Program-made: the position numbers and the translations under genes | Shown here: piece after piece, positions 1 through 205 of the stretch | Layout: each line of letters begins with the position of its first letter | Position numbering within the stretch: position 1 is the stretch's first letter | The notes under the pieces: generated by a model | The model's database searches: none | What the model was told of the DNA's origin: nothing | The model's input: only the letters and a program-made list of their open reading frames with translations | NCBI RefSeq assembly: GCF_003334385.1 | Contig: NZ_QOWN01000229.1 | From: Escherichia coli | GTDB lineage: Bacteria; Pseudomonadota; Gammaproteobacteria; Enterobacterales; Enterobacteriaceae | Reading direction: 5' to 3' (one strand) | DNA length: 205 bases

Positions 1-205
1 CAGGGACATCGCAAACAATATGAAGACGGATTTCTTCTCTGCCGTGACTCTTTTCACTCATTGCGTAACTGTCATGCTCTGGATTATTTAATTCTTTCAG
101 CGGAAATTTTTCCTCAAAGGCTTTATTAAGCCGCCCCTGGTTTCCTTTTACAGCGAATAAATAATCACCTCCCTGTTTTTGTATCTTCTCTGCAATATCT
201 TTCTG
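1..205 (-). CDS. ISAs1-family (H-repeat-associated, YhhI-like) DDE transposase; internal fragment, truncated by the window at both ends
   Basis: Minus-strand frame with first codon at 205..203 (CAG, Gln) and last complete codon at 4..2 (CCT, Pro); base 1 starts the next codon. 68 codons, no stop. Translation: [68 protein letters not shown]. The other two minus-strand frames hit stops within the first ~55 nt, and all three plus-strand frames contain stops (TGA 21-23, TAA 89-91, TAA 127-129). The peptide, including the [13 protein letters not shown] block (bases 134-172), matches my recollection of the E. coli K-12 H-repeat-associated proteins nearly residue for residue. This is recall, not a search result. 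Gene symbol is left blank because several near-identical paralogues exist (yhhI, ydcC, ybfD, plus pseudogene copies) and 205 bp cannot distinguish them. Confidence 0.85.
1..205 (-). mobile_element. Internal portion of an ISAs1-family insertion sequence (H-repeat / H-rpt element); element ends not in window
   Basis: Follows from the transposase call above. No terminal inverted repeats, target-site duplications or insertion junctions are visible, so element boundaries and completeness cannot be assessed. GC is about 40% (82 of 205, counted by hand). Confidence 0.7.

Follow-up and report, generated by a model that had tools for sequence, protein, structure and literature searches.

A 205-bp stretch of Escherichia coli DNA lies inside an H-repeat transposase frame and most likely derives from the rhsC-linked ybfL pseudogene copy

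A 205-bp stretch of E. coli DNA (contig NZ_QOWN01000229.1 of assembly GCF_003334385.1; hereafter the window, meaning the whole stretch that was analysed), with a G+C content of 40%, raises the question of which element it belongs to, which of the several copies of that element it represents, and whether this copy still encodes a complete transposase. An initial annotation, made from the letters alone, had described the window as lying entirely within the gene of a YhhI-type H-repeat transposase of the ISAs1 family. Judged from sequence comparison, the window is a segment of the H-repeat transposase (ISEc1 in ISfinder nomenclature, ISAs1 family), a well-known and ordinary element, in which we distinguish the following features.

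Positions 2–205, minus strand: H-repeat/ISEc1 (ISAs1-family) DDE transposase, 68 complete codons (translation, NF033564, and 100% identity to features annotated 'ISAs1 family transposase').
Positions 30–152: span that distinguishes the ybfL-type allele from the K-12 paralogs (alignment and difference table).
Positions 28–47, minus strand: second copy of an imperfect 20-nt internal direct repeat, TCACGGCAGAGAAGAAATCC (repeat search of the K-12 locus).

Frame 1 of the minus strand is free of stop codons across the whole window and spans 68 codons, while stops are present in each of the other five frames, exactly as had been noted at the outset. Because mononucleotide shuffling of the window also gave at least one fully open frame in 12% of 20,000 cases, an open frame of 68 codons is on its own weak evidence, and the case rests on similarity. 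The NCBIfam model NF033564 (ISAs1 family transposase) matched the 68-residue peptide with an E-value of 6.2e-16 and 58.5 bits (profile positions 149–217 of 314), a score that falls below the whole-protein cut-off of 70 bits because only 69 of the 314 profile positions are covered by the fragment; residues 19–378 of K-12 ybfL, the part of its frame that follows a stop codon, scored 414.7 bits over profile positions 1–314. The Pfam model DDE_Tnp_1, which had been proposed as the check on the translation, gave a marginal match to the fragment (E 0.008, model positions 88–139) and was barely informative, so the NCBIfam model specific to the family took its place and proved decisive. In many E. coli chromosomes, moreover, features annotated as ISAs1-family transposase match the window at 100% identity. 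An Rfam scan of both strands at a permissive threshold yielded SCARNA4 as its best match, with 16 bits where the gathering score is 60 (E 0.61), which is at chance level and indicates that the window holds no RNA element. The frequency of open frames among shuffled windows and the marginal Pfam match would both be expected if the frame were a chance feature or part of an unrelated protein family, but the E-value and bit scores obtained with NF033564, the complete identity to annotated ISAs1 features and the lack of any Rfam match of note rule this reading out. The family assigned by the initial annotation is therefore upheld, and so is its placement of the window in the central region of the protein, the codons corresponding to residues 177–244 of a 378-codon frame, with base 1 being the first base of codon 245.

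The domain layout of the protein is clearest in the two intact K-12 relatives, YdcC and YhhI, which score 416 and 412 bits, respectively, on NF033564 (cut-off 70). In YdcC, Pfam places DDE_Tnp_1_assoc (PF13808) at residues 9–94 (E 6e-33) and DDE_Tnp_1 (PF01609) at residues 102–343 (E 2e-30). The latter domain is shared with the DDE transposases of the IS4 and IS1380 families, to whose catalytic-domain profiles the H-repeat transposase shows weak similarity (NF033592, E 7e-4, and NF033539, E 6e-6); its scores, however, are 18.8 bits against a cut-off of 115 and 25.2 bits against a cut-off of 180, so far below these thresholds that it is not a member of either family. A PDB sequence search with full-length YdcC returned no solved relative, the best match being CheY at an E-value of 0.97. 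Following IS4-like DDE enzymes, we take D109 (AIDGKT), D172 (TTDAMG) and E306 (HVENKLH) as the candidate catalytic triad by motif. The window starts five residues past D172 and ends 62 residues ahead of E306, and on this motif reading it would represent the linker between the second aspartate and the glutamate, with none of the probable catalytic residues inside it.

Alignment with the H-repeat copies of K-12 separated these closely similar paralogs from one another as follows.

ybfL (b0705): 205/205 positions identical to the window, no residue changes.
ydcC: 202/205 positions identical, one residue change.
yhhI: 201/205 positions identical, two residue changes.
ybfD: 199/205 positions identical, three residue changes.
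yncI: 62% identity, 28 residue changes.

In plus-strand coordinates, the window differs from both ydcC and yhhI at positions 152 and 128, from ydcC also at position 78, from yhhI also at positions 141 and 59, and from ybfD at positions 128, 116, 80, 79, 59 and 30. YdcC (b1460, RhsE-linked) and YhhI (b3484, RhsB-linked) are both intact putative transposases of K-12 (ISEc1) with the same element ends, and over the window region they are 98.5% and 98.0% identical to it, with the changes E219A in the former and N198T and M225I in the latter. In contrast, ybfL (b0705), the H-repeat pseudogene of the K-12 RhsC element, shows no difference within the window and has the same strand logic and the same frame. 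The label 'YhhI-type' was accordingly right in pointing to a close paralog of yhhI, but the allele is not that of yhhI, from which it departs at four bases and two residues; among the K-12 copies, only ybfL is identical. Over the entire element, the yhhI and ydcC units are 95.5% and 95.0% identical to the ybfL unit, and they are 1,291 bp long with uninterrupted frames, whereas the ybfL unit measures 1,290 bp.

The K-12 ybfL unit extends from CAGGGAAAGATCACGTAA to TTTCGTAATCTTTCCCTG, with 18-nt imperfect terminal inverted repeats that are 89% complementary, and when it is aligned with the ydcC and yhhI units, similarity begins at CAGGG and ends at CCCTG, exactly at the termini. A single gene of 1,137 nt (378–379 codons) fills nearly all of the unit. 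Downstream of rhsC in K-12 (L004:10303-12928) there are three tandem H-repeat pieces, ybfQ, ybfL and ybfD, and only the middle one, ybfL, is full-length: on the left, ybfQ consists of 380 bp of left end and breaks off abruptly at the start of the complete 1,290-bp unit, and on the right, the ybfD copy has been shortened both at its left end, by the first ~20 nt, and by an internal deletion. In E. coli, this array is situated between the rhsC toxin locus and ybgA/phrB. Insertion sequences of the ISAs1 kind are expected to generate direct target-site duplications. No direct duplications were seen flanking the ydcC (L002:7674-8964) and yhhI (L003:8236-9526) units, and the flanks of the ybfL unit are other H-repeat pieces. 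The internal direct repeat listed above, in which TCACGGCAGAGAAGAAATCC is 80% identical to TCAAGACGGATAAGAAATCC located 259 nt upstream in the gene, is probably a chance match, as short repeat families often are.

Turning to the surroundings of exact matches, we inspected eight loci from seven strains: K-12 (two records), 720632, 300709, S1-IVC-02-A, E2528-C1, EC17CM13 and PRO_A-2576-6M-A_ESBL. All of them lie at one site, between ybfC and ybgA and downstream of the core gene of an rhs locus with its C-terminal tip fragments, in the order phrB-ybgA-ybfD-[copy]-ybfQ-ybfC-rhsC fragments, and in all seven strains the copy is annotated as a pseudogene, K-12 ybfL included. Direct reading of the sequence revealed a TAA at codon 18 in six of the seven strains, the seventh copy having lost its 5' end to IS1A. 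This codon lies on the plus strand about 475–477 nt past the right-hand end of the window, and the conceptual translation of the copy in K-12 (379 codons) meets no other stop; a match with one mismatch that was also inspected again sits at the rhsC-linked locus and carries the same codon-18 stop. With a TAA at this position, the ybfL copy cannot make full-length transposase and is a relic. Taken by sequence identity, the window is very probably an internal 205-bp segment of the H-repeat in its ybfL allele, coming from the rhsC-linked pseudogene copy. Calling it a 'transposase gene', as the initial annotation did, is apt for the frame and needs amending for the gene, every inspected exact-match copy in the seven strains being annotated as a pseudogene.

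Several rhsC-linked loci have changed further. In S1-IVC-02-A it is an IS1A (L007:2811-3508) that removes the 5' end of the ybfL-type copy, and in 720632 an IS1A (L005:4944-5641) together with an MFS transporter gene occupies the place of the ybfC/rhsC side. The rhsC-linked copy of strain Z1323CEC0008 (L012:2097-3233, minus strand), a strain without the ybfQ fragment, has seven private changes in codons 106–123, one common to L013 (strain 13KWH46, described below), and two more private changes in codons 170–171; this bunching suggests short tracts of conversion by a more distant paralog.

The same 205 bases could, instead, come from an intact and potentially active ISEc1 gene, whether in an unsampled strain or Shigella or at another Rhs-linked site. 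In STEC379, the ISEc1 gene WP_000420795.1, at another Rhs-linked site, has only two mismatches to the window, its codon 18 reads CAA and its frame is unbroken; paralogs evidently exchange blocks, so that these 205 nt could be carried by an intact copy; and the inspected sample is small, at eight loci from seven strains out of roughly 1,200 exact-match records. Yet every inspected exact-match locus, as well as the one-mismatch locus, proved to be the rhsC-linked pseudogene, and no other K-12 copy is identical to the window, which makes an intact source unlikely. The intact transposase gene of STEC379 (L011:3375-5205) closely follows, on the downstream side, an Rhs-type toxin locus, and the pairing of H-repeat with Rhs recurs here away from rhsC; the toxin locus includes a restriction-endonuclease-fold toxin, a SUKH-3 immunity-like gene and an RHS fragment.

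A second stop-bearing copy bears on the history of the rhsC-linked pseudogene. Strain 13KWH46 has, next to yafV/ivy/fadE, an H-repeat copy (L013:2097-3233, minus strand) with the same codon-18 TAA as ybfL, to which it is 97.4% identical and which it likewise equals in length at 1,290 bp. The two frames are separated by 14 synonymous and four non-synonymous changes, giving a pN/pS of 0.07 (p 3.5e-7 against neutrality). If taken at face value, this synonymous excess between two TAA-sharing copies would favour re-initiation after codon 18 and a useful protein with a shortened N-terminus, such as an inhibitor of transposition by analogy with Tn5 Inh, and the K-12 record does annotate ybfL from codon 26 onward. 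The differences, however, are distributed in blocks: the yafV copy is ybfL-type over coding nucleotides 1–260 and 656–987 and shows the states of the intact paralogs over nucleotides 288–606 and 1032–1104, the latter two blocks containing 13 of the 18 differences. Purifying selection on the stop-bearing frame was rejected on these grounds, the differences forming conversion-like blocks that match intact paralogs. Exchange between paralogs, by recombination or gene conversion, accounts for the pN/pS pattern, so that a functional truncated protein is not needed; such a product would also miss part of the N-terminal domain (residues 9–94), and we regard it as extremely unlikely. By their sequences, the H-repeat paralogs are demonstrably block mosaics, showing that the copies recombine or undergo gene conversion with one another.

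By megablast, the window was found in 5,314 of 5,426 complete E. coli genomes, at a median of four places per genome and nearly always on the chromosome, and every one among the matches listed is annotated as an ISAs1 or ISEc1 family transposase. Of 40 rows taken at even intervals from the ranking, nine were 100% identical, implying that roughly a fifth to a quarter of the records, or ~1,200, are exact; the eight loci inspected above were drawn from these. Across E. coli genomes, plasmids, phages and one genome per species (collections outside which Shigella chromosomes lie), exact matches occurred in E. coli chromosomes only. Among plasmids, 22 records matched, none at 100%, and several of these are chromosome-sized records; among phages, there was a single match at 98%, to positions 628–832 of an unannotated 1,547-bp record (OR845860.1, 'Escherichia phage ECO95 1-6-1'). 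With so few and non-identical plasmid records and one phage record, the H-repeat element is essentially chromosomal. The phage record itself appears to be a piece of H-repeat DNA from the host and not phage sequence.

Beyond E. coli, a 110-nt allele-specific core of the window had no exact match in a set of about 100,000 species, each represented by one genome, and a 41-nt core shared without change by the K-12 paralogs was present in six species representatives, namely Escherichia albertii, E. whittamii, Escherichia sp. E1V33, a Citrobacter MAG, Pseudocitrobacter vendiensis and an unclassified proteobacterial MAG. The copies in these six are 95.6–98.0% identical to the window by blastn and are the closest found outside E. 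coli. The enterobacterial origin that had been suggested at first is borne out by these comparisons and can be narrowed to E. coli, the sole holder of exact matches in the collections covered.

The H-repeat resembles other members of the ISAs1 family in being an element of 1.2–1.5 kb that is filled by one DDE transposase gene and bounded by short terminal inverted repeats, and it differs from the family in that its copies occur almost only beside Rhs loci and that the ybfL copy is defective. The prototype of the family, which the initial annotation also placed in Vibrio and Aeromonas, is ISAs1 of Aeromonas salmonicida, and another member, ISPmar4, has Paracoccus marcusii as its host. ISPmar4 is listed with the transposable elements that trap plasmids revealed in Paracoccus (PMC3281130), which shows that the ISAs1 family is mobile elsewhere, and IS1548 of Streptococcus agalactiae, a 1,316-bp member, alters the expression of several genes (PMC7096684). 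The E. coli H-repeat itself has not been seen to transpose (PMC3032704), and ISAs1 circles were not detected in a study of the K-12 mobilome (bioRxiv 10.1101/2024.07.17.603846).

Going by the family, the transposase of intact copies would bind the terminal repeats and then cleave and join DNA by means of its DDE triad, and the ybfL unit, which keeps both ends, could in principle be moved in trans by YdcC or YhhI. A ybfL-type copy that is not dead in spite of its stop codon, either as the source of a shortened transposase derivative that regulates intact H-repeat copies or through movement in trans by way of its intact ends, is in our estimation very unlikely; were it true, the recurrence of the TAA allele at another site, beside yafV, would be in keeping with movement of such a copy.

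Read as the ybfL-type relic, the window is of little significance in itself, the H-repeat being a long-known, multi-copy and Rhs-linked element of E. coli that the initial annotation had correctly called well described and not novel. Its exact allele is a marker of the ybfL copy at rhsC, which about a quarter of sequenced E. coli possess, and read mapping from the window is ambiguous owing to a median of four near-identical copies per genome. For the genome of this organism, H-repeat copies act as substrates for recombination and gene conversion, as the mosaic patterns illustrate.
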